A stretch of DNA of 64,000 nucleotides from Candidatus Aminicenantes bacterium (GTDB lineage Bacteria; Acidobacteriota; Aminicenantia; JAMOAD01), in NCBI GenBank assembly GCA_035403085.1, contig DAONEM010000002.1, forward strand, positions 10,876 through 74,875, in the 5' to 3' direction. Positions 638 to 59,150 of this stretch are shown here, one piece after another. Below the pieces are notes generated by a model. That model ran no database searches. It was not told the DNA's origin and saw only the letters and a program-made list of their open reading frames with translations. The translations under genes and the position numbers were made by a program. Every line of letters begins with the position of its first letter. Within the stretch, counting starts at the first letter, position 1.

Positions 638-1096
638 TTACCCCTCCAATGTCGAGGTACAGTGGGGGCAACGCCGTGCCTTCAGGGGAATCGTGGAAAG
701 GCAGAAGGGGCAGCTCTTTTCCGTGGTCACCGGAGGCGGCAGGACCGGCTCCTCCGGCTTCCTGAGACGGTTGATCACCTTGAGAATCAGGAAGAGGGCG
801 AAGGCGACGATGAGGAAAGAGATGACCCTGTTGAGGAAGAGGCCGTAGGAAAAGGTGACGGCCCCCGCTTTCTGGGCCTCCGCCAGCGTAGAGAAGGGTC
901 CCTCCACGGTGCCTTTTTTGAGGATCAGGAAAAGGTTGGAGAAGTCAGTCTTCCCTAAGAGGAGCCCCAGGGGGGGCATGAGGATATCTGTGACCAGAGA
1001 GTTGACGATGGCTCCGAAGGCGCTTCCGACGACGACACCCACGGCCATGTCCAAGGCGTTTCCCTTCACGGCGAACTCTTTAAACTCTTTCAGCAT
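638..1096 (-). CDS. mscL: Large-conductance mechanosensitive channel MscL with an extra C-terminal CxxC...CxxC zinc-ribbon
   Basis: [33 protein letters not shown] is the MscL signature. Tail [32 protein letters not shown] lies before the ATG. Confidence 0.85.
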
Positions 1097-1197
1097 TCTT
1101 CCTCCTTTCTTCTCTTCCGTTTCCGCTACTTGAGCCGGTCTCTTTCCCGACGATGCCTGTGGAAGAGTCCCCGGTCAACCCCAGGAGACAGGGTACT

Positions 1198-1226
1198 ATT
1201 TTGCCGGAAAGGAGGGGACGTGACAA
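1198..1226 (-). promoter_or_regulatory. Candidate sigma70 promoter for mscL (TTGTCA-N17-CAAAAT on the minus strand)
   Basis: The hexamers and 17-nt spacer were read from the reverse complement. The leader to the ATG would be about 95 nt. Confidence 0.25.
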
Positions 1227-1254
1227 GGGAAACGAAGAAGCGGAGACTCCTCAA

Positions 1255-1283
1255 GAGGAGGGGAGGTCTTGTCTCCCCTCCTC
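1255..1283 (-). terminator. GC-rich hairpin immediately 3' of the DUF4097 gene
   Basis: GAGGAGGGGAG-N6-CTCCCCTCCTC perfect 11-bp inverted repeat 12 nt after the stop. There is no clear U-tract. Confidence 0.3.
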
Positions 1284-1294
1284 TTGGTGGGAGA

Positions 1295-2254
1295 TTAACG
1301 TTCCAGGATCTCCACACGTCCCGTCGCGGTGGAGAGGGAAATCTTCACGGAAGAGCCTCCCCGTCGAACGCTCTTCTTCTCATACTCCTCTCCCCACTCC
1401 GTGAAGGTCTCCTGTTTCTCGAAGGAGAAGGGGGCGGCAATGCGGCCTTCGCGTTTCCGCGCGGTCATCTCGAAGATCCCGTTCATCGGGTTGCCCTTGA
1501 AGTTGAGGGAGGCGTCTCCACTGGCCGAAGCCACGGAGAGATCTGCGGAAGGGCTCTTGTTCAGAGAGACCTTCATGTCCCCCGAAGCGGTTCTGAAGGA
1601 GGAGGGTCCCGTTACGGTGACGTCGACGTCTCCGTCGCCGCTGGCCAGGGAGAAATGGAGGCTCCCCTGCGCGTCCTCGGCGGAGAGGTCGCCTGAGGCG
1701 AGGGAGGCGCGGGTCTCCCCTTTGGTCTTGTTTAGGGTGATGTCCCCGGAGGCCGTGTTCAGGGAGAGGGAACCCTGAACGTTCTTGAGGGTCAAGTCGC
1801 CGGAGGCGGAACGGAGGGAGAAAGAGCCTTCACAACGGCTGATGAGGATATCTCCAGAGGCGGTCTTCCCCTTGAACTCCCCCTTCAGATCCTCGCCGGT
1901 GATGTCTCCGGAGAGGGAGGAGGCGTTCACCGTAGCCCCTTCGGGAAGGGTGATCGTCCAGAGAATGTTTCCAGAGGAGTGGTCCCTGACCCAGCGTTCC
2001 TGAAGGGTCAGAGCCGTTCCCTCTTCGGAGACGACCGTCTCGACCGCTCCCGCGGGGGAGAGCTCGGCGACGACCAGAACGGTGATGGAATCGGTGGTTC
2101 CTCTTTTGAAAAGACAATCCCCGCTGATCGTCTTAATGTTCACCGTTCTCTTGTTGGGGAAGCTCTTCTCCAGGAGAACCTCTCTGCCCTGCGCCGCAAC
2201 GGTGAGGGTGAGAAGGGAGAGGCACAGGCCGAACAAAAATGTTTTTCGTTTCAT
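1295..2254 (-). CDS. Secreted DUF4097/DUF4098-type putative adhesin-like beta-helix protein with about 8 (A/T/S)SGD repeats
   Basis: Signal peptide MKRKTFLFGLCLSLLTLTVAAQG. Repeats TASGDILISRC / SASGDLTLKNV / TASGDITLNKT / LASGDLSAEDA recur about every 21 aa. Confidence 0.7.
   Translation of the reverse strand: MKRKTFLFGLCLSLLTLTVAAQGREVLLEKSFPNKRTVNIKTISGDCLFKRGTTDSITVLVVAELSPAGAVETVVSEEGTALTLQERWVRDHSSGNILWTITLPEGATVNASSLSGDITGEDLKGEFKGKTASGDILISRCEGSFSLRSASGDLTLKNVQGSLSLNTASGDITLNKTKGETRASLASGDLSAEDAQGSLHFSLASGDGDVDVTVTGPSSFRTASGDMKVSLNKSPSADLSVASASGDASLNFKGNPMNGIFEMTARKREGRIAAPFSFEKQETFTEWGEEYEKKSVRRGGSSVKISLSTATGRVEILER
1480..2000 (-). repeat. Intragenic tandem repeats of about 63 nt encoding the xSGDxxL beta-helix rungs
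   Basis: The motif TC(C/G)CC(G/A)GAGGC recurs on the plus strand about every 60-66 nt inside the DUF4097 CDS. Confidence 0.4.
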
Positions 2255-2270: not shown

Positions 2271-2378
2271 TCAGGGGGCCCGTTGCCCCCTTCTCCCAGA
2301 GTTTAGGGAAAAAGAGGGGGGCTGTCGCCCGGAATCGGGAAATCCGAACCTTTCGGAGTGTTCGGATTCACGATTCCG
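2271..2378 (-). terminator. Two stem-loops at the 3' end of the sensor/AraC gene: a long nested inverted repeat and a G5C hairpin
   Basis: CGGAATCGGGAAATCCGAAC-N10-GTTCGGATTCACGATTCCG (about 19-bp arms) overlaps the stop codon. AGGGGGC-ccgtt-GCCCCCT lies further 3'. A C-rich/T5 stretch sits between them on the minus strand. Confidence 0.35.
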
Positions 2379-4902
2379 GACCCTTCGATGGCTCCTTTCC
2401 GGGGAGAGAGCGACGCCAGAGAGAGGGTGTGGTCCCGTACCTCTTCTTAAAACCGGTGTTGAAGACCGACTTGGAGTTAAAACCGCACTCCAGAAGGATC
2501 TCCAGGACCGTCTCATCCCGGTTCTTCTGCAACCGTTCGCAGGCCTCCTGGAAACGGTACCCGTTGAGGTAGTCGTTGAACCCCTTGCCGAGGTGGTCGT
2601 TGAGAAAGCGGGAGAGAAGGTGGGGGGAGAGGGAGAGCCTCTCCGCCAACCTGGGCAGGGAGAGCAGGGGATCACGGTAGAGGCGGTCCCTCTCCATGGC
2701 CTTGCTCAGAAGAGAGGCGATGCGGGTGCTCTCTTCCGAGGGGAGGAGCGGCCTCGAAGGGCTCTTCCGCCTTCGTCGAAGGAATGCCCACGTCAACGTT
2801 CCCCCTCCGATCAACAGGAGGGAGAGGAGGAGGGGGAGGAAGGAGAGGTCTCGGGCCACACGGAACTTTCCCTCCCAAGGGGAAAGGAGTTCCGGAGCCG
2901 TCACCGTGAGGGTGTAGCGCCCCGGGGGAAGGGGGGGCAGGGAGAGGGTTCCCGCCTTCGCGGTCAAGGTCTTCTCCAGGGGCCCCTTGAGGGAGATCTT
3001 CAGAAGGTGCTCCCCTCTTTGCTCCTCACCAGGAAGGAAGAGGCGGAGGACGGGACGGCGGCACCGTTCCGAAAGCCTGCCCTCGGAGCCTAGGTCTTCA
3101 CAGAGGGGACCCTCTACCCAGAGTCCGGAAAGGGGAGGGGGCTCACCGTCGAAGGAGTTGAGAAGGACTCCCCTCCGGGAGGAGGCGTAGATCCTCCCAT
3201 CTTGTAGGGTTGAGACCAGGGGGTAAGCGGGGGAGGAGGGGGGCCTTGCCTCCGGGGTGTCCAGGAGGCGGCGGAGTTCCAGAGTGCCGGTCGTTGAAAG
3301 CTCCTGCTCCGGGGTACGGGAGAGGCGGAGAATGCCCCTGGAGGTTCCCGCCCAGAGGCGTCCTCCTCTGTCTCGAACCAGCCAGAGGATGCTCTCCCCG
3401 TCCAGGGCCCCTCTGTCGAAGAAGAAACGGTTGCCGAGAAAGAGGCCGATCCCGTTGTTGCGGGAACCGAGCAGGAGGCCTCTCCCAGGGGTCGGAAGGA
3501 GGGAGAGGAGGGGCGGCGAGGGGTGGAGGAGAGGTGCCTTGGAGGGCTTTAACTCGAGCAGCCCCTTGTCCGTCGCCGCCCAGAGGGTGCCCTCCCTTCC
3601 CAGGAGGAGCTCCCGGACCCCAGAGGCGGGGACCCTTTGCAGAACCTCTCCCTCCTGGAGGAGCAAGAGAGAACGGTCTGTTCCGGCCCAGAGGCGCTCT
3701 CCTTCACCCTTGACAAGACAGAGCAGGGGGCCCTCCTTCAGGGCGAAACGTCTTTCGACCCCTCCCCGAGGGGAGAGGAGGTAGAGGGTTCCTTCCCTGG
3801 AGCCGACCCAAAGCCGGCCCTCAGCGGAAGAGGCCAAGGAGAGGGGCGTCTCTTTGAGGGAAGCCGTAAGCCTCCGTCCTCCCTGAAGGCCCAGGAGGCT
3901 GTCGTTGGAAAGAATGGCCCAGAGAGCGCCTCCGGGGAGAAGGGTCAGAGCCTTCGTCTCCTCCTCGGGAAAGGCCTTAACCGGGGACCAGGCTTTGGGG
4001 CTTAAACGGAGAAGGCCTCCGGCGACGGATCCGGCCCAGAGAGTCTTGGTCTGAGAGACCCAGAGGAGGGAGTTGATCCAATCGTCGGGGATCCCCTGGG
4101 CGACCCCCAGGGGGGTCCACTCCCTTCCCTCCCTCTTGAGAAGGCCCTCTCCCTCCGAGGCTCCCCAGAGAAGACCCTCCTGGTCCTCCACTAAGGCCCG
4201 GAGAGGGGGACCATAAGGGGGGAGGAGGCGGCCTCCCTCTTCCAGAACGAGCCCCCCCTCCCCTCCGATCGCCAAGGAGCCGTCCCTTCTGATCAGAAGG
4301 GAGCGTACGAGACCCGGAAAGAGAGAGGTTACCACCCGCCGGGAGCCTTTGAGGAGGGAGACAACCTCTCCGTTCCCTCCCGCGAGAATCACTCCCTTAG
4401 GATCTTCCAGGAGGGAGGTCACCGGCGGGCGGGGGCCGTCGGAGCGGAGAGCGAACAGGGATTTACCGGCGGCCTTCACATAGAGGCCTCTCTCCGTTCC
4501 CGCCCAGAGGTTCCCCCCGCGGTCGACGAGAAGGGAGTAGACCGAGAGCTCCTTGAGCCCTTCCGGTGGTGGGTCGAATCGACCGCTTCGGCTATGGAGT
4601 AGCCTTGGGCCTCCGCCTTCGAAGCCGACCCAGAGGTCGCCGCTGGAAAGGGGGAGGAGGGAGAGGACCCTCCTTTTCGTATCCCCCTCTTCGAGAGGGA
4701 AGAAGCGGCTTCCGTCGAACCTGAGGAGTCCTTCCGGAGTTCCGAGCCAAAGCCAACCATCAGAGGATCTGGCGATAGCGGTGACCGTCGGTGTCGGCAA
4801 CCCTTCCCAGAGGCTCCATTGCCTCAAGAGAAGGTCCTGGGCCTCAAGGGGAAGAGAGAGAAGAAGAAGGGAGAAGAGCCCTTTTCTGACCCAAGAGAGC
4901 AT
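2368..4902 (-). CDS. Membrane one-component regulator: signal/TM, periplasmic Reg_prop beta-propeller repeats, Y_Y_Y domain, TM helix, cytoplasmic AraC-type HTH; no HisKA/HATPase/REC
   Basis: Repeated xLW(A/V)GT..GL.R motifs: DGWLWLGTPEGLLRFD, GNLWAGTERGLYV, RLWVGSREGTLYLL, RLWAGTSRGILRL. Y_Y_Y-like PPGRYTLTVTA. TM LPLLLSLLLIGGGTLTWAF. C-terminal AraC HTH ...GFNSKSVFNTGFKKRYGTTP. The ORF track starts at 5013; the internal ATG at 4902 has a GGAGG RBS and begins the signal-like MLSWVRKGLFSLLLLSL. Confidence 0.8.
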   Translation of the reverse strand: MLSWVRKGLFSLLLLSLPLEAQDLLLRQWSLWEGLPTPTVTAIARSSDGWLWLGTPEGLLRFDGSRFFPLEEGDTKRRVLSLLPLSSGDLWVGFEGGGPRLLHSRSGRFDPPPEGLKELSVYSLLVDRGGNLWAGTERGLYVKAAGKSLFALRSDGPRPPVTSLLEDPKGVILAGGNGEVVSLLKGSRRVVTSLFPGLVRSLLIRRDGSLAIGGEGGLVLEEGGRLLPPYGPPLRALVEDQEGLLWGASEGEGLLKREGREWTPLGVAQGIPDDWINSLLWVSQTKTLWAGSVAGGLLRLSPKAWSPVKAFPEEETKALTLLPGGALWAILSNDSLLGLQGGRRLTASLKETPLSLASSAEGRLWVGSREGTLYLLSPRGGVERRFALKEGPLLCLVKGEGERLWAGTDRSLLLLQEGEVLQRVPASGVRELLLGREGTLWAATDKGLLELKPSKAPLLHPSPPLLSLLPTPGRGLLLGSRNNGIGLFLGNRFFFDRGALDGESILWLVRDRGGRLWAGTSRGILRLSRTPEQELSTTGTLELRRLLDTPEARPPSSPAYPLVSTLQDGRIYASSRRGVLLNSFDGEPPPLSGLWVEGPLCEDLGSEGRLSERCRRPVLRLFLPGEEQRGEHLLKISLKGPLEKTLTAKAGTLSLPPLPPGRYTLTVTAPELLSPWEGKFRVARDLSFLPLLLSLLLIGGGTLTWAFLRRRRKSPSRPLLPSEESTRIASLLSKAMERDRLYRDPLLSLPRLAERLSLSPHLLSRFLNDHLGKGFNDYLNGYRFQEACERLQKNRDETVLEILLECGFNSKSVFNTGFKKRYGTTPSLWRRSLPGKEPSKGPES

Positions 4903-5006
4903 GCTTTGCCTCCATGGAAGAGAAGACGAAAGGGGGCAGAGGTTTGTTCCCCGGAACCTTTCTTTCCCTTCAGGGGAGTACCTTCGGGCTTTCCGGAGTT
5001 GTCTTC

Positions 5007-5035
5007 TTGTCATCCCGGAGAAAGGTGAGTAGAAT
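5007..5035 (+). promoter_or_regulatory. Near-consensus sigma70 promoter for the esterase-methyltransferase operon (TTGTCA-N17-TAGAAT)
   Basis: Hexamers at 5007-5012 and 5030-5035 with a 17-nt spacer. Predicted TSS is about 5042, leader about 40 nt, RBS GGAGG at 5073. Confidence 0.45.
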
Positions 5036-5041
5036 GAAGGG

Positions 5042-5066
5042 ATCCGGAAGATTGTTCCCTCCGGAT
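5042..5066. promoter_or_regulatory. Palindrome ATCCGGA-N11-TCCGGAT at the predicted +1 site, within an intergenic region carrying five CCGGA(A/G) motifs; candidate operator for the divergent AraC-type regulator
   Basis: Perfect 7-bp inverted repeat. CCGGA copies near 4946, 4992, 5014, 5044 and 5061. Confidence 0.3.
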
Positions 5067-5083
5067 TTTAATGGAGGCCGACT

Positions 5084-6214
5084 ATGGGCAAGAAGCTCCT
5101 TCTCCTTTTCCTCATCCTCGCTTCCTTTCTTCCCCTTTCGGGGGAGAAGAAGAGAGGCCTCTGGACAGATCCGGACTCCATCGATCCCCTTAAGATCGGA
5201 GTCTCCTCCTTCTTGAGCGTCGACCTGGGAGAGTACTTCGACAAGGCCTACAAGGCTATGGGGAAGAAGGAGTACTACCAGGCCGCTCAACTCTACCTCT
5301 TCATCCTTCACCATCGACCCGACGACGGAGAGGCTCTCTACAACCTTGCCTGCGCCTATGCGGGGCTCGGGGAGCCCAAACTGGCGGTTCCTTTCCTGGA
5401 AAGGGCCTTCGAGACGGGGCGTTTCTCTCTTGCGCAGATTCGCAGGGACAACGACCTTCAGCCCTTGGCTGGGGAGAGGAGCTTCGACGAAGCCTTGAAG
5501 CGGATGGAGGAAGAGGAGGCGGGGCGGGGTAAGTGGTTCTACTTCGCGGCGCCCCGGGTGGCGAGATGCCGCATCCACATCCCCGAAGGGTTCGATGCCC
5601 GCAAGAGTTACCCCCTCTTGGTCGGTCTACACGGGTATGGGGGCAACGCCGACGAGTTCGGCGGAATCTGGAAGTTCCTGCAGGGGAGGGAGCTCATCTA
5701 CGTCGCCTTGGAGGCCCCCTATCCCTTTCCTCCCAGCGGAAGAGTGAGGGGAAGCCACTACTCCTGGTCTTTCCCGGATCAGAATCCGGACCTGGGAAAG
5801 CTGGCGGACCCCCTGATCGCCGACACCGTAGAGGCCGTTGTCCGCCAGATCTCCCAGAGGTACTCCCTGAAGGGGGTCTACCTTTTCGGTTTCTCCCAGG
5901 GGGCCGTCTACGCGTACTACTGCCTCTCTCAGACCCCGGAACTCTACCAAGGGGTGATCGCCTTCGGGGGGCATCTGCCCCTGAAGGGGGCGACCTCCCC
6001 CTTCCGTGAGGAGGAACTGGCAAGGGCCAAGGGGGTCAAGGTCTTCATCGCCCACGGAAGGCAGGATCCGGTGGCGGACTTCCAAGAGGCCGTCCTGGCC
6101 AGAGACGACCTCAAGAGGCTCGGCTTCGATGTCACCTTTTCCGAGTTTCCAGGGGGCCACTCCATCCCCCCCTCGGTTCTCTCGAAGGCCCTCCTTTGGA
6201 TGGAGGGGCTCTGA
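5084..6214 (+). CDS. Secreted alpha/beta-hydrolase (esterase, phospholipase/carboxylesterase-type) with N-terminal TPR-like region
   Basis: Signal peptide MGKKLLLLFLILASFLPLSG. HGYGGN oxyanion region, GFSQGA nucleophile elbow, later Asp (GRQDPV) and His (PGGHS). Confidence 0.75.
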   Translation: MGKKLLLLFLILASFLPLSGEKKRGLWTDPDSIDPLKIGVSSFLSVDLGEYFDKAYKAMGKKEYYQAAQLYLFILHHRPDDGEALYNLACAYAGLGEPKLAVPFLERAFETGRFSLAQIRRDNDLQPLAGERSFDEALKRMEEEEAGRGKWFYFAAPRVARCRIHIPEGFDARKSYPLLVGLHGYGGNADEFGGIWKFLQGRELIYVALEAPYPFPPSGRVRGSHYSWSFPDQNPDLGKLADPLIADTVEAVVRQISQRYSLKGVYLFGFSQGAVYAYYCLSQTPELYQGVIAFGGHLPLKGATSPFREEELARAKGVKVFIAHGRQDPVADFQEAVLARDDLKRLGFDVTFSEFPGGHSIPPSVLSKALLWMEGL

Positions 6215-6834
6215 TGGCCGCCGACATCGGAAGAATCGTCTCCGAGCTCATCTCTTTTCGCAGCCTCCTGGGTAAGAGGGTTCTCTCGGTGGGTGCAGGG
6301 GGAGGGCAGTTTGTCGGCCTCTACAGGGAAGCGCGGGAGGTCGTCGCTCTGGACAACGACCCTTCCGCTCTGGATGCCTTGCGGGAGAGGGTGAGGTTGG
6401 AGGGGCTTGAGAACAGGGTGACTCCGCTCCTGGGGGATCTTCTCCTCCTTCCGGAGGGGGAAAAATACGACCTTCTCCTCTTCGAGTTCAGCCTCCACGA
6501 GATGGGAGACCCCGAAGTGGCGCTGAAAAAGGCCTGTACTCTCGCCTCAGAAGTCCTTGTGGCCGACCACGACCCCTCTTCCCCTTGGGCCTCTCTGGTC
6601 GGAGAGGGGGAGAAGGTCGCCCGTGCCTGGCGGGGCGTGAGGAACCGTGGCGCTCTCCTGGAGGTCGCCCATGGTGGGGAGCAGATCTTTTCCTCGAAGG
6701 AGGAGCTCCTGAGAAGGGTCGCCCCTCTGGGGCCGGAGGTTCAAGGTAACGCCAGGGCCTGGGCGGAGAGGGAGGGGCTCAGAATCCCTATGGTCTACAG
6801 GTTCGCCCTTCTCAAAGGGCTTTCAGGTTCCTGA
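6214..6834 (+). CDS. Class I SAM-dependent methyltransferase
   Basis: Motif I VLSVGAGGGQFVG and an acidic residue after beta2 (VVALDND). The ATG at 6214 overlaps the esterase stop (ATGA), indicating coupling. The ORF track starts 18 nt earlier. Confidence 0.65.
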   Translation: MAADIGRIVSELISFRSLLGKRVLSVGAGGGQFVGLYREAREVVALDNDPSALDALRERVRLEGLENRVTPLLGDLLLLPEGEKYDLLLFEFSLHEMGDPEVALKKACTLASEVLVADHDPSSPWASLVGEGEKVARAWRGVRNRGALLEVAHGGEQIFSSKEELLRRVAPLGPEVQGNARAWAEREGLRIPMVYRFALLKGLSGS

Positions 6835-7705
6835 CCCTGATCATCTGGGCGGCGATGCTGACGGCGATCTCTTCGGGGGTCTGGCTTCCGATGGGAACTC
6901 CCGCGGGGGAGACGATCCTCGCCAACTCCTCCCGGGAGAAACCCTCCTTCGCCAGGCGCTCCTTAATGGTCCCGCCCTTCTCGGGGCTGGCGACCAGGGC
7001 CAGGTAGGCGAAGGGCCTTCTCAGAAGGCTCCTCAAGGCGACCTCGTCCCAGAGGTGTTGGGAGGTCATGACGACGACGTAGCTCTCCTCCCCTTGGGGG
7101 ACCCTCTCCCCTACCGTGGTGAAGGGGTTCTCCTCGTGCCGTTCATCGAAGAGGGCGACCGAGAAACCGAGGCCGGGGAGGATCTTCGCCAACGCCACGG
7201 CCAGGTGACCTCCGCCGATGAGGGAGGCCCGCCATCGGCTTCCCAAGGGGGAGAGAAAGCTCCACCCCTTGGGAAGCCTTTCAAAGAGGGGTTCCCGGCG
7301 GAGGGTAGCCGACCAGGAGAGGGTGGTAGGGGTGATGGCGAGAGTGCCGGAACCCCCTTGCCTTAAGGCGCCGACGATCCGTTCAACCTCTTCGAGAAAG
7401 GCCGGGGGAACGGGGAGGAAGAGAAGGGTCATCTCCCCTCCGCAGAGGGTTCCGGACTCCTCTTCCTTGAGGAGGAAACGGAGAGGGGGGGGAGGGGGAT
7501 CCCCCTCCAGAACCCTTCTCGCCCTTTCCAAGGCCAGAAGCTCGGTCTGGCCGCCTCCGATGGTCCCGGCCGATTCTTCCGGTGTGACGGCCATGAGGAA
7601 CCCCGCCCTTCCGGGAGAACTTCCCGAGCTCTCTGCCACTACCACTAACAAAGCCCTTCCCCCTTTCAGAAGGGTTCTTTGGAGAAGAGCCCAGGGTTCA
7701 ACCAT
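6812..7705 (-). CDS. XdhC/CoxI family xanthine dehydrogenase accessory (Mo-cofactor insertion) protein
   Basis: MVEPWALLQRTLLKGGRALLVVVAESSGSSPGRAGF is a typical XdhC N-terminus. C-terminal Rossmann-like IGGGHLAVALAKIL. The upstream 56 codons of the ORF are Pro/Ser-rich and overlap the next gene, so the start is taken at ATG 7705. Confidence 0.7.
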   Translation of the reverse strand: MVEPWALLQRTLLKGGRALLVVVAESSGSSPGRAGFLMAVTPEESAGTIGGGQTELLALERARRVLEGDPPPPPLRFLLKEEESGTLCGGEMTLLFLPVPPAFLEEVERIVGALRQGGSGTLAITPTTLSWSATLRREPLFERLPKGWSFLSPLGSRWRASLIGGGHLAVALAKILPGLGFSVALFDERHEENPFTTVGERVPQGEESYVVVMTSQHLWDEVALRSLLRRPFAYLALVASPEKGGTIKERLAKEGFSREELARIVSPAGVPIGSQTPEEIAVSIAAQMIRVRNLKAL

Positions 7706-8174
7706 GGATTCCCCCCAGAAGACGGGCCATGACGGCGTAGTAGAGGGCCATGATCCCGGAGAAGGTCGCCGACCCGAGGAATCTGTGCGAGAGGGGAAGC
7801 TTGTTCTGGACAACGTAGTTTCCCACCGCCGAAAGGGGAAGGGAGATGAGGAAGGAGGAGAGGGAGGCGGCAAGAAGGCCTGAGGCCAGGAGTGCTTGGC
7901 CCGAGAAGAGGCGGAGGAAGAAGAGGTGTCTGGCGATCCAGAGGGGGTTGAAGTAGAGAAGGGCCAGGAGGAGCTTCCTCAAGGGGCGCTCTTCGGAGAG
8001 GCCGGAGATGATGGAGAAGGCCAGAGGAACCTCCCACGCGTAGAGGGAAGCGCCCACGAGGGAGAGCCCCAGGAAGCGACCCCACGTGAAAGAACCTGTC
8101 AGCAAGGCCCCCAAGGCGTCCCCGACGGGGTAGAGGATCGCCCCGGCGACGACCCGGCGCTTTTGGAGGATCAA
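7698..8174 (-). CDS. Small polytopic membrane protein of unknown function between the xdh Mo-subunit gene and xdhC
   Basis: Likely TTG start at 8174 (LILQKRR...) with RBS GGAGGAAGG 8 nt upstream, overlapping the xdh stop. About 4 hydrophobic segments. The first 107 codons of the ORF-track call overlap the xdh Mo-subunit gene in another frame. Confidence 0.45.
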   Translation of the reverse strand: MILQKRRVVAGAILYPVGDALGALLTGSFTWGRFLGLSLVGASLYAWEVPLAFSIISGLSEERPLRKLLLALLYFNPLWIARHLFFLRLFSGQALLASGLLAASLSSFLISLPLSAVGNYVVQNKLPLSHRFLGSATFSGIMALYYAVMARLLGGIHG

Positions 8175-10441
8175 GGCTTGCCTTCCTCCCTTTGGACGAG
8201 GAGGTTCAGGAGCCTTTCGTTGGTCAAGGGGGCGATCCCTTGGAAGGGTTGCGGCCTTCCCCAGGCGTTGATCGCCTTCCAAAGGGCTTGGTAGCCGGCG
8301 ATTCCGTAGAGGAAGGGGGGTTCGCCGGTCGCCTTCGACCCCAGGAGCCCCCGGACGCCTCCCTCCTCCTCTTCGAGAAAGCGGACATCCACCACCCCTG
8401 GGCAAGAGGAGAAATCTGGAACCTTGTAGGTGGTGAGGGTGTCGGTGATCATCTTCCCCTGAGGGGTCACCCTGCTCTCTTCGAGGGTGAGCCACCCGAG
8501 ACCCTGGAGGAAGGCCCCCTCAATCTGGCCGCGGTCCACCTCGGGTGCCGGTGTGCTCCCCACGTCGTGAACGACTTGGAATCTGTCGGTGCGAAAGGTT
8601 CCCCGAAGGGTGTCCAGGGTAACTTCGACCAAGGCCGTTCCAGAGACGTAGTAAGAGAAAGGCTCCCCCCGCTCTCTCTTACCGTCGAACCAGATGGCGG
8701 GGGTGGCGTAATGGACGAGGGCCGAGAGGTGAACCCGCTTTTGGTAGGCTTCCTTGACGACTCTCTCCCAGCTCCAGGTGGTCTTCTTCCCACCCCTTTC
8801 CAAGAGGCCCCTTCGGAAGAGAAGCTCCTCGGGAGAGGCGCCCAGAAGCTCCGCGGCGACGGCGAGGAGCCTTTCCTTCAGGAGGAGGGCGGCTCTTCGG
8901 GCGGCTTCGCCGTTCAGGTCCGCGCCGGTGCTGGCGGCGGTGGGGGAGGAGTTGGCGATGCGGGATGTGTCAGTGCTCTCCATACGGATTCGGGAGGGAG
9001 GGATTCCCAAGGTTTCCGCGACGGCCCTGGAGATCTTCACGGAGACTCCCTGGCCCATCTCTACGGCACCGGTGCTCACGGAGACGCTCCCGTCCGTGTA
9101 GACGTTGACCAGGGCGGAGGCCTGGTTGAGGGGGGTGTAGGTGAAGGCGATGCCGAAGTGGATCGGCATGAGGGCCGCCCCCTTCCGGCTCCAGGAAGCG
9201 GAGCGGTTGTACTCTTCGATCCTGGCCTCTGTCTCTTCCCAGCGGAAGAGGGCCTTCGCCTTCTTCCAACTGGCGGGGAGAGTCTCTTTCCCGAGGGTCT
9301 TCCCGTAGGGAAGGGTGTCCCCCTCCCTCAGAAGGTTGCGCTCCTTCAGCTCCTCCAGGGGAACCTTCATGGTCTCGGCGGCCTGGAAGAGGGCCGACTC
9401 TATCGCGAAAAAGGCTTGGGGGGCGCCGAAGCCTCTGAAGGCCGTTCTGGGCACATGGTCCGTCCGGCAACTGAGACCCGTGGCCCGCCCGTTGGGAACC
9501 CTGTAGGCTCCGGTGGCGTGGAGCAGGGTTCGGCTCAAGATAGAGAGGGAGAGGTCCATGGCGGCCCCTCCGTCCTGGTGAAAGAGGACCCGATAGGAGA
9601 GGATCCGCCCCTCTCGGTCGAGGCCGAGGGAGTAGTCCGTGGAGTAGGGATGGCGTTTCCCCGTGAAGGCCATGTCCTCCCTCCTGTTCAGGCTCAGGCG
9701 GAGAGGGCGGTTCAGGAGCCTGGCGCCGAGCGCGGCCAAAGCGGCCCAGGAGTTTGCGTTGGTCTCTTTCCCCCCGAAACCGCCACCCAGACGGAAGGCC
9801 TCTACGGTGACCAGGTGCATGGGGAGGCCGAGGATCCGGGCGACCGTCTTCTGGGTGCCCCCAGGGGACTGGGTGGATGAGAAGACCTTGACCCCTCCGT
9901 AGGGGAGAGGGAGGGCCAGGGCGCTCTGGGTTTCCATGTAGAGGTGTTCTTGATCACCCGAGTCGGCTCGTCCCTGAATCTTCCAGAAGGAGTCTTCCCA
10001 GGCCTTGTCAGGTTCACCCCAAGAGAGAACCTCGGGAGGGGCGTGGAGGCGTCCTTTGAGCGCGGCCTCCCGGGGATCGAACACGGGTCTCTCCCCAAGG
10101 GCCTCGACAACGATGAGGGGGAGGGCCCGGCGGGCGATCTCTTCGCTCTCGGCGACCACAAGGGCCAAGGGGTGACCGGGGTGGAGGATTCTTCGCTCCG
10201 CCAAGAACGGTTCGTCCGGAGCGAGGTCGTTCACCTGGTTCTCGCCGGGGATATCCTTGGCCGTAAAAACGGCCTTGACCCCCTCTAGGGCGAGGGCGGC
10301 AGAGGGGTCGATGCTCAGTAACTCCCCGCAGGGGACGGGAGGGGGTAAGACGGCTCCGAAGAGGGTCCCTTCGGGAAGGGGGAAGTCGACGACATAGAGG
10401 GGCTCCCCTTTCAGGGCCGCCAGGGAGAACTTTTTATCCAC
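8171..10441 (-). CDS. Xanthine dehydrogenase/aldehyde oxidase family molybdopterin-binding large subunit
   Basis: a/b-hammerhead and MoCo-binding regions (KDIPGENQVND, ETQSALALP, large C-terminal Mo domain). The ORF track starts at TTG 10492 with no RBS; GTG 10441 (VDKKFSLAALKG) follows an AGGAGAAAG RBS and overlaps the upstream stop. Confidence 0.8.
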   Translation of the reverse strand: MDKKFSLAALKGEPLYVVDFPLPEGTLFGAVLPPPVPCGELLSIDPSAALALEGVKAVFTAKDIPGENQVNDLAPDEPFLAERRILHPGHPLALVVAESEEIARRALPLIVVEALGERPVFDPREAALKGRLHAPPEVLSWGEPDKAWEDSFWKIQGRADSGDQEHLYMETQSALALPLPYGGVKVFSSTQSPGGTQKTVARILGLPMHLVTVEAFRLGGGFGGKETNANSWAALAALGARLLNRPLRLSLNRREDMAFTGKRHPYSTDYSLGLDREGRILSYRVLFHQDGGAAMDLSLSILSRTLLHATGAYRVPNGRATGLSCRTDHVPRTAFRGFGAPQAFFAIESALFQAAETMKVPLEELKERNLLREGDTLPYGKTLGKETLPASWKKAKALFRWEETEARIEEYNRSASWSRKGAALMPIHFGIAFTYTPLNQASALVNVYTDGSVSVSTGAVEMGQGVSVKISRAVAETLGIPPSRIRMESTDTSRIANSSPTAASTGADLNGEAARRAALLLKERLLAVAAELLGASPEELLFRRGLLERGGKKTTWSWERVVKEAYQKRVHLSALVHYATPAIWFDGKRERGEPFSYYVSGTALVEVTLDTLRGTFRTDRFQVVHDVGSTPAPEVDRGQIEGAFLQGLGWLTLEESRVTPQGKMITDTLTTYKVPDFSSCPGVVDVRFLEEEEGGVRGLLGSKATGEPPFLYGIAGYQALWKAINAWGRPQPFQGIAPLTNERLLNLLVQREEGKP

Positions 10442-11870
10442 CTTTCTCCTCCAGTACAAGGTTCTCAAGGAGGGGGGCCTGCTCGGGAGCAAGTCTCAAG
10501 AGAACGCCGGCGACCAGCCTTCCTAAGAGATGGGTCTTGTAGAGCGCGGAACCACGAACGTCGTCAATAGGGGTGACCTCTCCCTTCGCCGTCTCCCCGG
10601 CCTCCCGGATGAGCCCAGGAGAGAGGGGCGAGGAGAGGAGGAGGGCTGAGGTCTTCGAGAGGAGAAGGGGTACCGGGGCCACTCCTCCGGCGGCAAGACG
10701 GGCCTCCTCCAGGTGTCCCTCTTTGAGAAGGAGGAGGGCCGAGAGGTTCACCGAGGCGATATCCAACCGTTCCCGTCGGGAGACCTTCTCGAAGAACAAC
10801 CGGCTTCCCTCGGTAGGGAGGGGGATCAAGATTCTCTCCACAAGCTCTCCCGGAAGGAGGTCAACCTTTCGGTAGGCTAAGAAGAACCTCTCCAGGGGGA
10901 GGGTCCGTCGGCTGTTCCCCTTCACCAACCGGAGAGAGGAGCCCAGGGAGAGAAGGATCAGGGAGAGGTCTCCGATCGGGGAGGCGTTGACGAGATTCCC
11001 CGCCAGAGTTGCTCTGGCGCGTATGGGAGGAGAGGCCACGGAGAGAAGGGCGGTGGAGAGCTCGGGGAAGTGATCGGCCACCAGGGGAGAGAGACGGAAC
11101 TCCTCCAGGTTCACTCCGCCCCCCAGGGAGAGAAACTCGCCGCTTCTTCGAATCCCTTGAAGGGAGGGCTTGCGGGAGAGGAAGAGGGGGGAGGAAAGAG
11201 TCTCCCTCTGAACGAGAAGGTCTGTCGCCCCGCCGACGGGGAGAGCCCCCCGGCGATGGGAGGGAGGGGGAGGGTCGGGAAGGGCTTGGGCGAGGGAGGG
11301 AACCCAAGGGGGCAGAACCTTTCGGGCCACGAGCCACTCCATCCTGGCGAGGAGGCCACGGCGGCCGGACTCTTCGAATTCCCCCTTCTCCCAGAGGGAA
11401 CAGAGGGCTTCGATACCTCTGCCGAGGGAGGCGTAGCCTGTGCAACGGCAGAGGTTGCCTCCCAGAGCCTCCCTGGCGAGGGAGGAATCCAGGCGGGGGG
11501 AGTTGAGAAGGAAACCGGTGAGGGCGACGACGAATCCCGGTGAGCAGAAGCCGCACTGGACCACACCCGCCTCTTCCAGAGCCTTCTGGACCGGCGTGGT
11601 TCCCTCCGCCGAGAGGCCCTCGATGGTGAGGATGTGGCTCCCGTCGATCTCTCCGGCCGGGAGCAGGCAACTGTTAACGCTTCTGTAGAGGGTTTGCGCC
11701 CCCTCCCGTCGTCCCCAGAGGATCATGCAGGCCCCGCAGTCCCCCTCGCGGCAACCCTCCTTGGTCCCTACCAGGGAGAGGTCCCTTCTGAGAAGGTCGA
11801 CGACCCTTTGGGAAGGGGAGAGGGAGAGAGAGACTCTCCTCTGGTTGACCCAGAAGGTTGAGATTCCCAT
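10434..11870 (-). CDS. Xanthine dehydrogenase small subunit: N-terminal [2Fe-2S] domains fused to an FAD-binding domain
   Basis: CREGDCGACM and CGFCSPGF...CRCTGY 2Fe-2S motifs. CO-dehydrogenase-flavoprotein-like middle/C-terminal part. ATG 11870 (MGISTFWVNQRRV) preferred over the TTG 21 nt upstream. Confidence 0.8.
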   Translation of the reverse strand: MGISTFWVNQRRVSLSLSPSQRVVDLLRRDLSLVGTKEGCREGDCGACMILWGRREGAQTLYRSVNSCLLPAGEIDGSHILTIEGLSAEGTTPVQKALEEAGVVQCGFCSPGFVVALTGFLLNSPRLDSSLAREALGGNLCRCTGYASLGRGIEALCSLWEKGEFEESGRRGLLARMEWLVARKVLPPWVPSLAQALPDPPPPSHRRGALPVGGATDLLVQRETLSSPLFLSRKPSLQGIRRSGEFLSLGGGVNLEEFRLSPLVADHFPELSTALLSVASPPIRARATLAGNLVNASPIGDLSLILLSLGSSLRLVKGNSRRTLPLERFFLAYRKVDLLPGELVERILIPLPTEGSRLFFEKVSRRERLDIASVNLSALLLLKEGHLEEARLAAGGVAPVPLLLSKTSALLLSSPLSPGLIREAGETAKGEVTPIDDVRGSALYKTHLLGRLVAGVLLRLAPEQAPLLENLVLEEKGG

Positions 11871-11887
11871 CTTCGCAGGGGCTCCGA

Positions 11888-12331
11888 TCAAGGGATCAGA
11901 CCGGAACGGCGAAAGTTTCTCACCGTGTGCTTGACGGTGAAGTGGAGGTCAGGAATGGGCTTGGCCAAGGGGAACCAGCCGACGGCGCTGAACTTCCAGT
12001 TGGGGCTGGGCCAGTTCTCCGGTTTCTCTTTCACTCGAGAGAGATAGGTCCTGTACTCCCAGACGAAGGGGATCTGAATGAGGGTAACCTTGGTCTCGTC
12101 GGTGGCGAAGTAGCGTTCATCCAGGAGGAACTCCGTATTGGGGGCGCCGAACTCGGAACAGGTCTCCCGGAGGGCGCACTCCCAGTAACTCTCCCGATCC
12201 TTCCGGATTCCCCCGGGGATGCTCCAGACTCCAGAGGGTTTCGGGGTCCTCTTTCCAAGAAGGATCTCTCCACCCTGGGGGGTAGGGTAGAAGAAGAGGA
12301 ACCCCGCGCCCTCATACTTTTTCACCTTCAT
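11888..12331 (-). CDS. NUDIX hydrolase
   Basis: Nudix box GGIRKDRESYWECALRETCSEFG. ATG 12331 is preceded by GGAGGTGA. The upstream 116 codons of the ORF are a non-coding-like extension. Confidence 0.75.
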   Translation of the reverse strand: MKVKKYEGAGFLFFYPTPQGGEILLGKRTPKPSGVWSIPGGIRKDRESYWECALRETCSEFGAPNTEFLLDERYFATDETKVTLIQIPFVWEYRTYLSRVKEKPENWPSPNWKFSAVGWFPLAKPIPDLHFTVKHTVRNFRRSGLIP

Positions 12332-12400
12332 CTCACCTCCTCTCGGAACGGAAAGACCGCTCCCATAATACTGTAATCCCGAGAGGGGGGGGTTGTCAAA

Positions 12401-12443
12401 GGGGGGGGAAAAAGAGGGCGGAGGTCCCGGCGGCTCCGCCCTC
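12401..12443 (-). terminator. Rho-independent terminator after the M28 peptidase gene
   Basis: GAGGGCGGAG-N10-CTCCGCCCTC stem followed on the minus strand by TTTTTCCCCCCCC, 8 nt after the stop. Confidence 0.6.
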
Positions 12444-12450
12444 GCCCAAT

Positions 12451-38497: not shown

Positions 38498-38990
38498 AAA
38501 GTGAGAGTTCCTTCTCCATCTCCGAGGAATCTTTAATGATTTTCTCCTTCTGCTGTTGCCTGTAGAGGGAGATCTTCTCTTTCAGGGCTTGATCGTGAAG
38601 GGCCAACACGGAAAAGGCGAAGAGAACGGCGTTCTTCACTCCGGCCTTACCGATGGCCATAGAGGCGACAGGGATTCCCCCGGGCATCTGAACAATGGAG
38701 AAGAGGGAATCGATTCCCTTCAGCTCCGTCGAGGGGAGGGGGACTCCGATGACCGGGAGGGTTGTGAAGGAGGCGATGACCCCCGGAAGGTGGGCCGCCG
38801 CGCCGGCAAGGCCGATGATGATCTCCACTCCCTTCTCCTCCATCTTCTTGACGATCTCTTTGGTCCGTTCCGCGGTGCGGTGGGCCGAAGAGATTTGAAC
38901 CGTAAAGGGGACGTTGAAATCCTGGAAGAGAGGGAGGGAACCCTCCAGGAAGGAGAGGTCTGACTTGCTGCCGAGAACGATACCGATCAT
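38475..38990 (-). CDS. purE: 5-(carboxyamino)imidazole ribonucleotide mutase
   Basis: IVLGSKSD...IIGLAGAAAHLPGV...GVPLPS. Confidence 0.9.
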   Translation of the reverse strand: MIGIVLGSKSDLSFLEGSLPLFQDFNVPFTVQISSAHRTAERTKEIVKKMEEKGVEIIIGLAGAAAHLPGVIASFTTLPVIGVPLPSTELKGIDSLFSIVQMPGGIPVASMAIGKAGVKNAVLFAFSVLALHDQALKEKISLYRQQQKEKIIKDSSEMEKELSLYAHFFRL

Positions 38991-40261
38991 GTCTTCTCCT
39001 CAACACCGATGTCGTTGCGGTAGTTCATGCCTTCGAAGGAGACGAAGGAGACGGCCGTGTAAATCTTCTCCATCACCGTTTGCAGAGAGGGGGCGGTGGC
39101 ACAGACGTTCAGCACCCGGCCTCCGGAGGTTAAGAACTTGGAGTCTCTCTTCTCGGTTCCCGCGTGGAAGATCTGGACCCCCTCCATCATGGTTCCCCTG
39201 CTGAGGCCGTAGATCTCCTTCCCGGTCTCGTAACGCTCCGGATACCCTCCGGAGGCGAGGACGACGGTGCCCGAGGCGTTCATGCTCCAATCGATGTCAA
39301 CGTCCGAGAGGCTGTTGTTGACGATTCCGAGGAAGATTTCCAGCAGGTCGCTTTGGAGACGGAGCATGATGGTCTGCGTCTCGGGGTCGCCGAAACGGCA
39401 GTTGAACTCGAGAACCTTGGGACCTTGGGGGGTCATCATCAGACCCGCGTAGAGGACTCCTTTAAAAAGTCTTGATTCCTGGGCCATCCCGAAGACCGTC
39501 GGCATGATGATCGTTTCCATGACCATGCGGATGGAGGCGTAGTCGATGAAGGGAGAGGGGGAGATGGCCCCCATGCCTCCCGTGTTGGGTCCTGCGTTGC
39601 CGTTGTCCCTTCGCTTGTAATCCTTGCTGGTGACCATGGGGAAGGCCCTCTTGCCGTCGCTGAAGACCATGAACGAGGTCTCCTGTCCGGTGAGGAACTC
39701 TTCCAGGATCAGCCTCTCTCCGGCACCGCCGAATTCCTTGGAGACCATGATCTTCTCTACGGCCTTGACGGCCTCCTCTTTGGAGGAGACGACGATGACC
39801 CCTTTCCCCGCGGCCAAGCCATCGGCCTTGATGACGAAGGGATAGGAGAAACGTCCTCTTTCGATGGCGCTCATAGCCTCTTGGGGAGTGTTGGCGACGA
39901 GAAAGTCCGCCGTTGGAATCTCGTACTTCCTCATGAACTCTTTGGAGAAGACCTTGCTCCCTTCGAGAAGGGCGGCCCTCTGGGAGGGGCCGAAGATCTT
40001 CAGCCCTTTCTTCTCGAAGAGGTCCACGATCCCGGCCGCCAGGGGAGCCTCCGGTCCGACCACGGTCAGGTCGATCTCCTTCTCCTTGGCGAACTGGAGG
40101 AGGCTTTGGCCGTCGTTGACGGAGAGGTGGACCCTGGTGGCGATTTCGTCCATGCCCCCGTTCCCTGGAGCCACGTAGATCTGTTTAATGTCGGGATTCT
40201 GGGAGAGCTTCCAGATCAGGGCGTGTTCTCGGCCGCCTCCGCCGATGACGAAAATTTTCAT
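38987..40261 (-). CDS. purD: Phosphoribosylamine-glycine ligase
   Basis: MKIFVIGGGGREHAL..., ATP-grasp core. RBS AAGGAGGCTCA. Confidence 0.9.
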   Translation of the reverse strand: MKIFVIGGGGREHALIWKLSQNPDIKQIYVAPGNGGMDEIATRVHLSVNDGQSLLQFAKEKEIDLTVVGPEAPLAAGIVDLFEKKGLKIFGPSQRAALLEGSKVFSKEFMRKYEIPTADFLVANTPQEAMSAIERGRFSYPFVIKADGLAAGKGVIVVSSKEEAVKAVEKIMVSKEFGGAGERLILEEFLTGQETSFMVFSDGKRAFPMVTSKDYKRRDNGNAGPNTGGMGAISPSPFIDYASIRMVMETIIMPTVFGMAQESRLFKGVLYAGLMMTPQGPKVLEFNCRFGDPETQTIMLRLQSDLLEIFLGIVNNSLSDVDIDWSMNASGTVVLASGGYPERYETGKEIYGLSRGTMMEGVQIFHAGTEKRDSKFLTSGGRVLNVCATAPSLQTVMEKIYTAVSFVSFEGMNYRNDIGVEEKT

Positions 40262-57731: not shown

Positions 57732-59150
57732 ATGGAGAAAATCGCCCTTTGGTCGGCCGGTGGAGCGGAAGAGGTTACCGGATCCAAACATGTTCTCGAC
57801 GTTAATGGACAACGAATTCTTGTGGATTGTGGTCAATTTCAGGGGCGCCGGGAAGAAACCTATGAAAAGAACCAGCGCTTTCCCTTCGATCCCAAGAGTG
57901 TCGAGGCTGTTCTTTTAACCCATGGACATTTCGACCATTGTGGCAATCTTCCATCCCTGGTTAAGCAGGGTTTTGACGGAAATATCTACTCCACTCCTTC
58001 GACGCAGGAGCTCTCCGCCCTTGTGCTCAACGACAGCGCCCACCTTCAAGAGAAGGACGCCGAGTTCGTCGCCAAGATCATCAAGAAGAAGAAGAGAGCG
58101 GACATGAAGGTTTATCCCCCCCTCTACAATGCAGAGGACGTGAAAGAGACCCTTCGCCACTTCGTCACCTATGACTACGAAAGGCGTTTCCGGGTCGGGC
58201 AGAAGCTCAACGTGGAGTTCTTCGATGCCGGGCACATCCTCGGGTCGGCCATGGTCATGGTCACCGTGAACAGGGAGGATGGAACGGCTGTGAGAATCGG
58301 CTTCTCCGGGGACTTGGGAAGGAAGGCGACACCCCTTCTGAAGAACCCCAGACACATGCCTCCGGTGGACTATTTCATCGTGGAAAGCACTTACGGCAAC
58401 AGACTCCACGAAGATGTCGACCAAGCGGAGACGGAACTGGCAGAGGTGATCACGTCAACCGCCGCCAAGGGGGGCAAAGTCATCATTCCCGCCTTCGCCA
58501 TCGAGCGGACCCAGGTTCTCCTCTACTTCATCCACAAACTGCGCAATGCCAACAGAATCCCCAGGATCCCCGTTTATGTCGACAGTCCCATGGCCATCAG
58601 CGCCACCTCCATCTTCAAGGCCCATCCGGAGTGCTTCGATCGGGAGACCTACGAGCTCTTCTTCGACCACGACAGGAACCCCTTCGAGTTCCCCGAAGTC
58701 CGTTACGTGGCGGAAGTTCAGGAGAGCATGCAGATCAACGAGAGGCACGAACCGGCCATCATCATCTCCGCCAGCGGCATGTGCGAGGCCGGGCGGATTC
58801 TTCACCACCTGAGGAACAACGTGGAGAACCCGAACAACACGGTGCTCATCGTGGGCTTCATGGCTAAGAACACCCTGGGGAGGAAGCTGGCCGACCGGAA
58901 CCCCACGCTGACGATCTTCGGTGAAACCTTCGAGCTCAAGTCCAGGGTCAAGATCATCAACGCCTTCAGCGCCCACGCCGACTACAGGGAGATCGCGGAG
59001 TACGTCTCCGAGATGGATCTGACAAGGCTGAAGAAGATCTTCCTGGTTCACGGCGAAACCGAGGCCAGAAACAACCTGAAGCTCGAACTCAAGAGAATCT
59101 TTCCCAACGTGGAGCCCGTGGAAACCGAGAAGAGGTATACTCTGGAGTAA
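57732..59150 (+). CDS. MBL-fold metallo-hydrolase with beta-CASP / RNA-specificity domain (RNase J-like, short form)
   Basis: HGHFDHCG (HxHxDH), later Asp/His ligands, beta-CASP region, C-terminal ...FSAHADYREI. Confidence 0.8.
   Translation: MEKIALWSAGGAEEVTGSKHVLDVNGQRILVDCGQFQGRREETYEKNQRFPFDPKSVEAVLLTHGHFDHCGNLPSLVKQGFDGNIYSTPSTQELSALVLNDSAHLQEKDAEFVAKIIKKKKRADMKVYPPLYNAEDVKETLRHFVTYDYERRFRVGQKLNVEFFDAGHILGSAMVMVTVNREDGTAVRIGFSGDLGRKATPLLKNPRHMPPVDYFIVESTYGNRLHEDVDQAETELAEVITSTAAKGGKVIIPAFAIERTQVLLYFIHKLRNANRIPRIPVYVDSPMAISATSIFKAHPECFDRETYELFFDHDRNPFEFPEVRYVAEVQESMQINERHEPAIIISASGMCEAGRILHHLRNNVENPNNTVLIVGFMAKNTLGRKLADRNPTLTIFGETFELKSRVKIINAFSAHADYREIAEYVSEMDLTRLKKIFLVHGETEARNNLKLELKRIFPNVEPVETEKRYTLE

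Follow-up and report, generated by a model that had tools for sequence, protein, structure and literature searches.

The window analyzed here is a stretch of 64,000 nucleotides (nt) from a Candidatus Aminicenantes bacterium (assembly GCA_035403085.1, contig DAONEM010000002.1, positions 10,876 to 74,875 of the forward strand), and positions below count from its first letter. Near its left end, on the minus strand, lies a gene for a transcriptional regulator of 844 amino acids (aa) in which a predicted periplasmic propeller sensor is joined by a single transmembrane (TM) helix to an AraC-type DNA-binding domain (DBD), with no kinase or receiver domain in between. Facing away from it across a short intergenic region are the genes for an esterase and a methyltransferase, the candidate target of the regulator. 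The gene and the parts of its product are as follows.

2368..4902, minus strand: regulator gene, 844 aa plus stop codon (open reading frame, Pfam, AlphaFold2 model, ratio of nonsynonymous to synonymous substitution rates (dN/dS))
4837..4902, minus strand: N-terminal signal peptide or signal anchor, aa 1-22, MLSWVRKGLFSLLLLSLPLEAQ (translation; modeled helix at aa 2-15)
3157..4833, minus strand: predicted periplasmic tandem beta-propeller sensor, aa 24-582 (Reg_prop, all-beta model, Foldseek)
2857..3120, minus strand: membrane-proximal Y_Y_Y-like beta-sandwich, aa 595-682 (modeled strands)
2767..2841, minus strand: single TM helix, aa 688-712, followed by RRRRK (hydropathy and model)
2740..2766, minus strand: predicted disordered tether from the TM helix to the DBD, aa 713-721 (confidence below 50 at aa 711-718; first DBD helix from aa 722)
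2410..2739, minus strand: AraC/XylS-type DBD, aa 722-831, seven helices and two helix-turn-helix (HTH) motifs

Architecture of the regulator

The protein begins with a signal helix, which leads into tandem beta-propellers and a degenerate Y_Y_Y sandwich; beyond these, a single TM helix and about nine disordered linker residues connect to a complete, MarA-like AraC domain. Pfam and NCBIfam profile searches, reported up to E = 0.1, returned Reg_prop repeats (Pfam, E = 8.6e-28) and, at the C-terminus, HTH_18 (2.9e-18, at aa 789-868 when the open reading frame is read as 881 aa) and HTH_AraC (9e-8); HisKA, HATPase_c and Response_reg gave no match in either search at E values up to 0.1, and the Pfam search gave no GerE match, the output being HTH_18. 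The original prediction had proposed just this profile check, and it was confirmed for Reg_prop, for HTH_18 and for the absence of the kinase and receiver profiles; the Y_Y_Y profile that it also expected stayed below threshold (Pfam, E = 0.083) and the domain is seen as a fold. Sequence searches of the PDB matched the sensor part to 3v9f, 4a2l and 3ott and the C-terminus (aa 739-832) to Rob, MarA and GadX, and the C-terminal part has the makeup of the AraC/XylS family, a DBD of about 100 aa with two HTH motifs.

The AlphaFold2 model, built from a 66-sequence alignment, has a mean predicted local distance difference test score (pLDDT, the confidence given in the list above) of 82 and a predicted TM-score (pTM) of 0.61. 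When it was compared with the PDB by Foldseek, the top matches were the whole periplasmic domains of BT3049 (3v9f) and BT4663 (4a2l/4a2m), with E values from 4.5e-33 to 1e-30, about 770 aligned columns and target-normalized TM-scores of 0.62-0.66. Hydropathy gives one internal TM segment. Because the TM helix ends at residue 712 and the first helix of the DBD begins at residue 722, a kinase or receiver domain cannot fit between them; the stretch in which the original prediction had allowed for a hidden one holds about nine disordered residues. Pfam, hydropathy, the AlphaFold2 model and Foldseek thus agree on the kinase-less, single-pass, one-component regulator that had been proposed. The one polypeptide carries a DBD and at least one TM segment and is non-hybrid, as in the transmembrane transcription regulators (TTRs) discussed below.

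The Y_Y_Y module is degenerate in sequence, retaining only its last motif (PPGRYTLTVTA), in which G661, Y663, V667 and A669 are conserved across the family. The modeled strands indicate that the domain is nonetheless present as a fold.

Relatives are labeled P where they are database protein clusters and L where they are loci (locus L028 is GCA_035386325.1); most comparisons below use L004, a divergent syntenic ortholog. The open reading frame extends over 2368..5013 (minus strand) and would give 881 aa if read from an ATG at 5013. Judged from the sequence, the true start is the ATG at 4902, which gives 844 aa: it has a GGAGG 6 nt to its 5' side, and the database gene calls for P0001 (100% identical) and for the L004 ortholog are both 844 aa long. 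The ATG at 5013 was rejected, as a 14-nt indel at 4976-4989 in L004 would frameshift the N-terminal extension. The closest named relative is P0005, annotated as [quoted passage not shown] from a metagenome-assembled genome of Candidatus Aminicenantes.

The L004 ortholog has the same 844-aa architecture at 88% amino acid identity. Between the two, dN/dS is 0.18 overall (dS 0.31), with values by region of 0.20 for the propellers, 0.09 for Y_Y_Y and 0.11 for the DBD. By this comparison the gene is under purifying selection in every domain, most strongly in Y_Y_Y and the DBD; decay from a hybrid two-component system (HTCS), the class in which such a sensor is joined to kinase, receiver and AraC domains, is thereby ruled out.

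Relatives and distribution of the architecture

The statement in the original prediction that the Reg_prop/Y_Y_Y module is normally the input of Bacteroidetes-type HTCSs was too narrow. The 120 best homologs of the sensor carry many outputs, among them HisKA and HisKA_3 kinases, GGDEF, adenylate cyclase, Ser/Thr kinase and a Cys-rich tail, and eight of them (859-1034 aa) carry AraC alone; the Joint Genome Institute (JGI) name for these AraC-only relatives is [quoted passage not shown] All have Y_Y_Y, a TM segment, a basic patch, a linker of 20-50 aa and an AraC DBD, and the linker of the regulator described here is the shortest.

When aa 590-844 were compared exhaustively by HMMER with 1.84 billion cluster representatives, more than 15 proteins of 825-954 aa were found that match in one contiguous piece, from the Y_Y_Y motif through the TM segment to the C-terminal DBD. 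The eight cluster representatives of about 900 aa that were checked all combine Reg_prop, Y_Y_Y and HTH_18 without a kinase, and the remaining top matches are mostly proteins of 300-800 aa with 4-6 TM segments and a C-terminal AraC DBD. A search with the cytoplasmic tail alone returned three fragments only. Altogether at least 16 database proteins (P0007, P0009, P0010, P0012, P0020, P0021, P0027, P0056, P0245, P0252, P0265, P0276, P0284, P0299, P0336 and P0344) share the order Reg_prop, Y_Y_Y, TM segment and AraC without a kinase. They are 860-1030 aa long, are only 23-30% identical to the regulator overall and, unlike it, have canonical Y_Y_Y domains and longer linkers (20-50 aa). The architecture is therefore not very unusual, and the class is already visible in databases and in the literature.

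The DBD is 40-51% identical to those of membrane-tethered AraC proteins vs. 33% to a genuine HTCS DBD, and by sequence it belongs to the membrane-tethered AraC subgroup. This closer kinship suggests that the regulator arose by domain shuffling rather than by internal deletion of an HTCS.

A protein of the membrane-tethered kind is encoded at locus L016 (203-1246, plus strand), a polytopic membrane protein of 347 aa whose C-terminal AraC DBD is 45% identical to that of the regulator. It stands for a very large group of proteins of 350-420 aa with 4-6 TM segments plus AraC, the nearest relatives of the regulator's DBD.

The divergent operon and the intergenic region

On the other side of the regulator's start codon the following features are found.

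5084..6214, plus strand: TPR plus Abhydrolase_2 esterase (phospholipase/carboxylesterase family), 376 aa, predicted exported; candidate target
6214..6834, plus strand: class I S-adenosylmethionine (SAM)-dependent methyltransferase, 206 aa (Methyltransf_25/31/11)
4903..5083, no strand: divergent intergenic region, 181 nt
5007-5035, plus strand: sigma-70-like promoter TTGTCA-17-TAGAAT of the esterase-methyltransferase operon, 10 of 12 consensus matches
4992..4997, no strand: TCCGGA box 1, about -50 to -45 from the predicted transcription start (+1)
5043..5048, no strand: TCCGGA box 2, about +1 to +7 from the predicted +1, left palindrome arm
5060..5065, no strand: TCCGGA box 3, about +19 to +24 from the predicted +1, right palindrome arm

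The divergent pair had been described as a secreted alpha/beta-hydrolase with a SAM methyltransferase, and Pfam agrees. The esterase matches Abhydrolase_2 (1.2e-17) and TPR, has a signal-like N-terminus and matches 4fhz in the PDB (1.5e-10); a GGAGG lies at 5073-5077, and dN/dS against L004 is 0.14. The ATG of the methyltransferase overlaps the esterase stop codon (TGATG, 6212-6216), an arrangement that recurs in L004.

Likewise, the near-consensus promoter TTGTCA-N17-TAGAAT lies where it had been placed. It is the sole sigma-70-like site in 4700-5300, and L004 keeps it as TTGTCA-17-TAAAAT. Sites of comparable quality number seven in the window vs. 2.3 in shuffled sequence, and all four on the plus strand lie 33-48 nt before the start of an open reading frame; because of this enrichment and placement, the sigma-70-like consensus appears to be meaningful in this host. 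A second site with identical hexamers and spacing (TTGTCA-17-TAGAAT) lies at 57671-57699 on the plus strand, 33 nt to the 5' side of the open reading frame 57732..59150. No motif beyond the hexamers is common to the esterase promoter and the other promoters of the window, that at 57671 included.

The intergenic region of L028 is identical to that of the window. Against L004, positions 4903-4988 are 79.5% identical and carry the 14-nt indel, about the neutral rate; positions 5007-5083, from the -35 hexamer to the ATG of the esterase, are 93.5% identical vs. about 75% expected from dS (P about 2e-5). The promoter and leader are under real constraint, and its source may be the function of promoter and ribosome-binding site (RBS), an operator, or both. 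All three full TCCGGA hexamers and the N11 spacing are retained in L004; box 1 lies within TTTCCGGAG (4990-4998), which is unchanged there between the 14-nt indel and four consecutive substitutions. TTTCCGGAG and ATCCCGGAG (5012-5020) are 22 nt apart, and the proximal copy overlaps the -35 hexamer but is mutated in L004.

Five CCGGA cores do occur in the 181 nt, as had been claimed for CCGGA(A/G), at 4951, 4993, 5015, 5044 and 5061 (the last reads CCGGA(A/G) on the minus strand only); two of them were lost in L004, the sole divergent ortholog, where 4951 reads CCGGG and 5015 reads CCGCA. Five cores per 181 nt are reached at three places in the window (0.3% of positions), and three copies of TCCGGA within 80 nt are unique in it. 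Some hexamer occurs at least three times in 44% of 181-nt segments, and a palindromic hexamer is present in three copies in only 2 of 353 such segments. TCCGGA itself is no more frequent in the window than expected (55 observed vs. 55.2). The only other close TCCGGA pair in the window is TCCGGATACCCTCCGGA (39237-39253, plus strand); this pair has CCCTCCGGA in common with box 3 and lies inside the open reading frame 38987..40261.

Comparison with known systems

The closest characterized analogue of the regulator is BguR of Formosa agariphila, a protein with a signal peptide, two propellers, Y_Y_Y, one TM segment, a linker, a GerE HTH and no phosphorelay, which was shown genetically to be required for about 80-fold induction of the adjacent laminarin polysaccharide utilization locus (PUL), and for which an ATP-independent, direct coupling of periplasmic sensing to transcription has been proposed (preprint 10.64898/2026.01.10.698779). 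The two share the signal peptide, tandem propellers, Y_Y_Y (here as a fold only), single TM segment, short linker, C-terminal HTH and lack of HisKA, HATPase and receiver (REC) domains, and in both the gene adjoins its presumed target. They differ in output, GerE/LuxR-type in BguR and an AraC/XylS domain with two HTH motifs here; BguR has been shown to activate a beta-glucan PUL of the SusCD type in Bacteroidota, whereas the present protein belongs to Aminicenantes and is predicted from sequence, and the positions of the boxes in the window hint at repression. No beta-glucan PUL (SusCD pair, glycoside hydrolase families) lies by the regulator, whose neighbors are MscL, DUF4097, the esterase, the methyltransferase and a xanthine dehydrogenase (xdh)-like operon. 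Our literature searches found no paper characterizing an AraC-output version.

With the HTCSs BT4663 and BT3049 the regulator shares the periplasmic fold over the whole sensor, the AraC output and membrane-tethered DNA binding (the last predicted here), but the HisKA-HATPase-REC block of about 550 aa is missing and the DBD shares only 33% identity with that of an HTCS. In HTCSs an unphosphorylated REC domain keeps the DBD from DNA (PMC11253607); with that block missing, such inhibition cannot exist in the regulator.

A survey of TTRs, defined as proteins with a DBD and at least one TM segment, provides the wider frame (Demey et al., 2023, PMC10269533). In it HTH_18 is the commonest DBD (33% of 50,302 TTRs), 7-8% of TTRs have Y_Y_Y and Reg_prop, most often there is a single TM pass, and kinase-less “Y_Y_Y,GerE” proteins such as Fjoh_1559 are listed; one part of its table holds no “Reg_prop...Y_Y_Y,HTH_18” entry without a kinase. 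The survey is a census that gives neither function nor mechanism for the Reg_prop/Y_Y_Y/AraC combination (PMC10269533). The regulator's DBD is 44-51% identical to those of the polytopic AraC TTRs of 350-420 aa. ToxR, CadC and TcpP resemble the regulator as one-component, single-pass proteins that bind DNA from the membrane, but their topology is opposite (N-terminal cytoplasmic winged-helix DBD of the OmpR type, C-terminal periplasmic domain) and their domains are unrelated. The protein is thus related to the BguR/TTR class, with AraC as its output and a candidate lineage as its host, and is not a new principle.

Proposed mechanism and alternatives

We give a probability of about 0.55 to the reading that the protein is a membrane one-component regulator which works by ligand-driven rearrangement of a dimer and has the divergent esterase-methyltransferase operon as its likely target. 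The sensor would be a dimer, as in BT4663 and as proposed for BguR. An extracytoplasmic ligand, by default guess a glycan or other polymer fragment, would bind it and shift the two membrane-proximal domains and TM helices relative to each other. How far apart and in which orientation the two tethered AraC domains stand would follow from this movement, and they might thereby gain or lose occupancy of sites on nearby DNA.

That the divergent operon is the target we rate, taken by itself, at a little less than even odds. The only ties between the regulator and the esterase are adjacency, divergent orientation and the constrained leader. As for the sites, we treat the TCCGGA boxes as a putative operator of the regulator, and a rather doubtful one. 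With the promoter near consensus and two boxes at +1 to +24, repression relieved by the ligand would fit slightly better than AraC-type activation. There is a slim chance that the protein is a ligand-relieved repressor of this near-consensus promoter with the three boxes (about -47, +3 and +20) as its operator, possibly looping box 1 to boxes 2 and 3 while tethered about nine residues from the membrane; if this were true, repression together with recognition of a palindromic hexamer would be a mode undescribed for HTCSs, BguR or typical AraC activators.

A number of observations count against regulator, target and operator as just described. The dimerization and the signaling step across the membrane are inferred by analogy from BT4663 and BguR. 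The regulator itself has no sigma-70-like promoter with at least 8 of 12 matches, in the window or in L004. Our ortholog searches (a word-indexed protein search, a genome contig scan and a metagenome contig scan) returned regulator orthologs only at 88-100% identity (L004, L015, L028 and L029), the rest being at most 30% identical or matching in the HTH alone; these searches returned no ortholog between 28% and 88% identity. The gene order of L004 (Reg_prop sensor with Cys tail, MscL, DUF4097, regulator, divergent esterase and methyltransferase, XdhC, xdh-like operon) is identical to that of the window, and at 88% identity this synteny is uninformative on linkage. Esterase homologs jump from 93% to 40% identity, and three loci with homologs at 37-38% have neither the regulator nor the methyltransferase nearby; proteins of the same architecture as the regulator have unrelated neighbors (P0009, P0012, P0020 and P0027 loci).

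The sites themselves belong with these contrary points. The 93.5% conservation spans promoter, leader and RBS, and those signals alone could explain it. The perfect palindrome ATCCGGA-N11-TCCGGAT that had been reported at the transcription start is there (5042-5048 / 5060-5066), but a perfect 7-nt inverted repeat with a 3-20-nt spacer occurs in 33% of 181-nt segments, i.e., at chance level, and the seventh base (the T flanking box 3) is lost in L004. Pairs of TCCGGA within 5-25 nt are likewise at chance level (two in the window, 1.0 expected), as are direct repeats at 15-25-nt spacing in the intergenic region. AraC/XylS sites are asymmetric, about 17-20 bp long and usually direct repeats near or overlapping the -35 hexamer. 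Predicted HTCS/AraC sites are direct repeats of 12-16 bp about 21 bp apart (PMC3878776). The hexamers here are palindromic and lie 51 and 17 bp apart, two of them to the 3' side of the -10 hexamer, unlike the direct repeats of AraC and HTCS sites, and the layout that the original prediction called typical of the AraC family does not appear to be what the region has.

These same points lend weight to an explanation in which the membrane regulator is retained and controls other genes (DUF4097, MscL or distant loci), so that the TCCGGA boxes would belong to another factor or to nothing. With adjacency as the sole tie to the esterase operon, esterase homologs that lack such a regulator nearby, a box layout unlike that of AraC sites, and relatives of the same architecture among unrelated neighbors (two of them paired with a Reg_prop-GGDEF protein, not with an enzyme operon), this explanation can add that, 113 nt to the 3' side of the regulator, its strand carries DUF4097 and then MscL, the stretch between regulator and DUF4097 having no terminator-like site on this strand. 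It has to contend, however, with local divergent regulation being the commonest arrangement for one-component regulators, and that of BguR; with a constrained promoter and leader holding a locally unique TCCGGA cluster; and with a promoter-like site that MscL has for itself (1226-1198). We consider it unlikely on balance, yet deserving of real weight. That the palindrome acts as RNA, folding into a hairpin in the 5' leader, with UUUU after it, through which the esterase mRNA would be modulated in its stability, attenuation or translation, seems to us improbable. The predicted transcript does have the arms at about +1 to +25, immediately to the 5' side of the RBS, with a predicted stem of 8-10 pairs (-12.7 to -15.9 kcal/mol), and they are kept in L004, where the sole substitution inside falls in the loop; but the folding energy is no better than that of shuffles (z of -0.9 and -1.3 in the window, +0.6 in L004), the U-run is shorter in L004, two alleles only leave no covariation to find, and the conserved box 1, to the 5' side of the -35 hexamer, would go unexplained.

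The other two alternatives concern the protein. Ligand-triggered proteolysis might cut the tether or TM segment and free a soluble, MarA-like monomeric DBD, an idea suggested by the disordered, Pro/Ser-rich tether (aa 711-721) and by the sterically demanding access to DNA that a tether of about nine residues would allow from the membrane. DBDs of the MarA, SoxS and Rob type can work as monomers, which is also in its favor. Yet no protease gene was found in the neighborhood, the published precedents (HTCSs, BguR and TTRs generally) are treated as acting from the membrane, and all relatives retain a short basic juxtamembrane segment with no recognizable cleavage module, so that we hold this to be very improbable. 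A decayed HTCS remnant that lost its kinase and receiver and no longer signals could be read from the degenerate Y_Y_Y (Pfam E = 0.083) and from a sensor about 90 aa shorter than those of HTCSs; it is effectively refuted by a dN/dS of 0.18 and an 844-aa frame intact in two lineages at dS 0.31, by a confident AlphaFold2 model, by the recurrence of the architecture in many independent clusters, and by the DBD, which sides with membrane-tethered AraC proteins (40-51% identity) over the HTCS DBD (33%).

Neighboring genes

To the 3' side of the regulator on the same strand (638-2254, minus strand) lie a DUF4097/LiaG-like “toastrack” gene (1295-2254) and MscL (638-1096), which may be envelope or osmotic-stress genes and could serve as targets instead; the promoter-like site at 1226-1198 is MscL's own. 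Beyond the methyltransferase and convergent with it (6812-12679, minus strand) are an XdhC-like gene and an operon for a molybdoenzyme of the xanthine dehydrogenase type (MoCoBD, FAD_binding_5, Fer2_2); next come genes for a NUDIX protein and an M28 peptidase (annotation from the syntenic L004).

The left neighbor, at 114-623 of the window (plus strand), is a second Reg_prop/Y_Y_Y sensor, full-length in L004 (2850-5546, plus strand; 898 aa). Its TM segment is followed by a coiled coil and by LPICCNCKKIRDDKGYWHQVENYIEKHSRAEFTHGLCPEC, a Cys motif about 40 aa long, and the same tail also ends P0046, P0067, P0099 and P0104. The tail gave no Pfam, PDB or literature match; judging by its sequence, the sensor here seems to carry a small output module that binds zinc and has not been described. 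In another lineage, at the loci of P0012 and P0020 (L001/L002, 8001-13714; L026, 1498-7119), the AraC-type protein is immediately followed by a Reg_prop-Y_Y_Y-GGDEF protein and a metallophosphoesterase, so that sensors of the same type with transcriptional and cyclic di-GMP outputs stand in one apparent operon.

Conclusion

The practical value of these results is modest, since the class is already in databases and the operator is putative. If the proposed reading is true, a propeller sensor of the HTCS type would act on AraC directly by way of one TM helix and about nine tether residues, without phosphorelay and without the REC-DBD safety catch, which would bear on how membrane-tethered regulators reach DNA and how they stay off it when no ligand is present. 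It would also provide one concrete sensor-promoter pair in an uncultured lineage, Aminicenantes, a candidate phylum without genetics, and would carry the principle of BguR to outputs other than LuxR, to bacteria outside Bacteroidota and to genes outside polysaccharide utilization loci.

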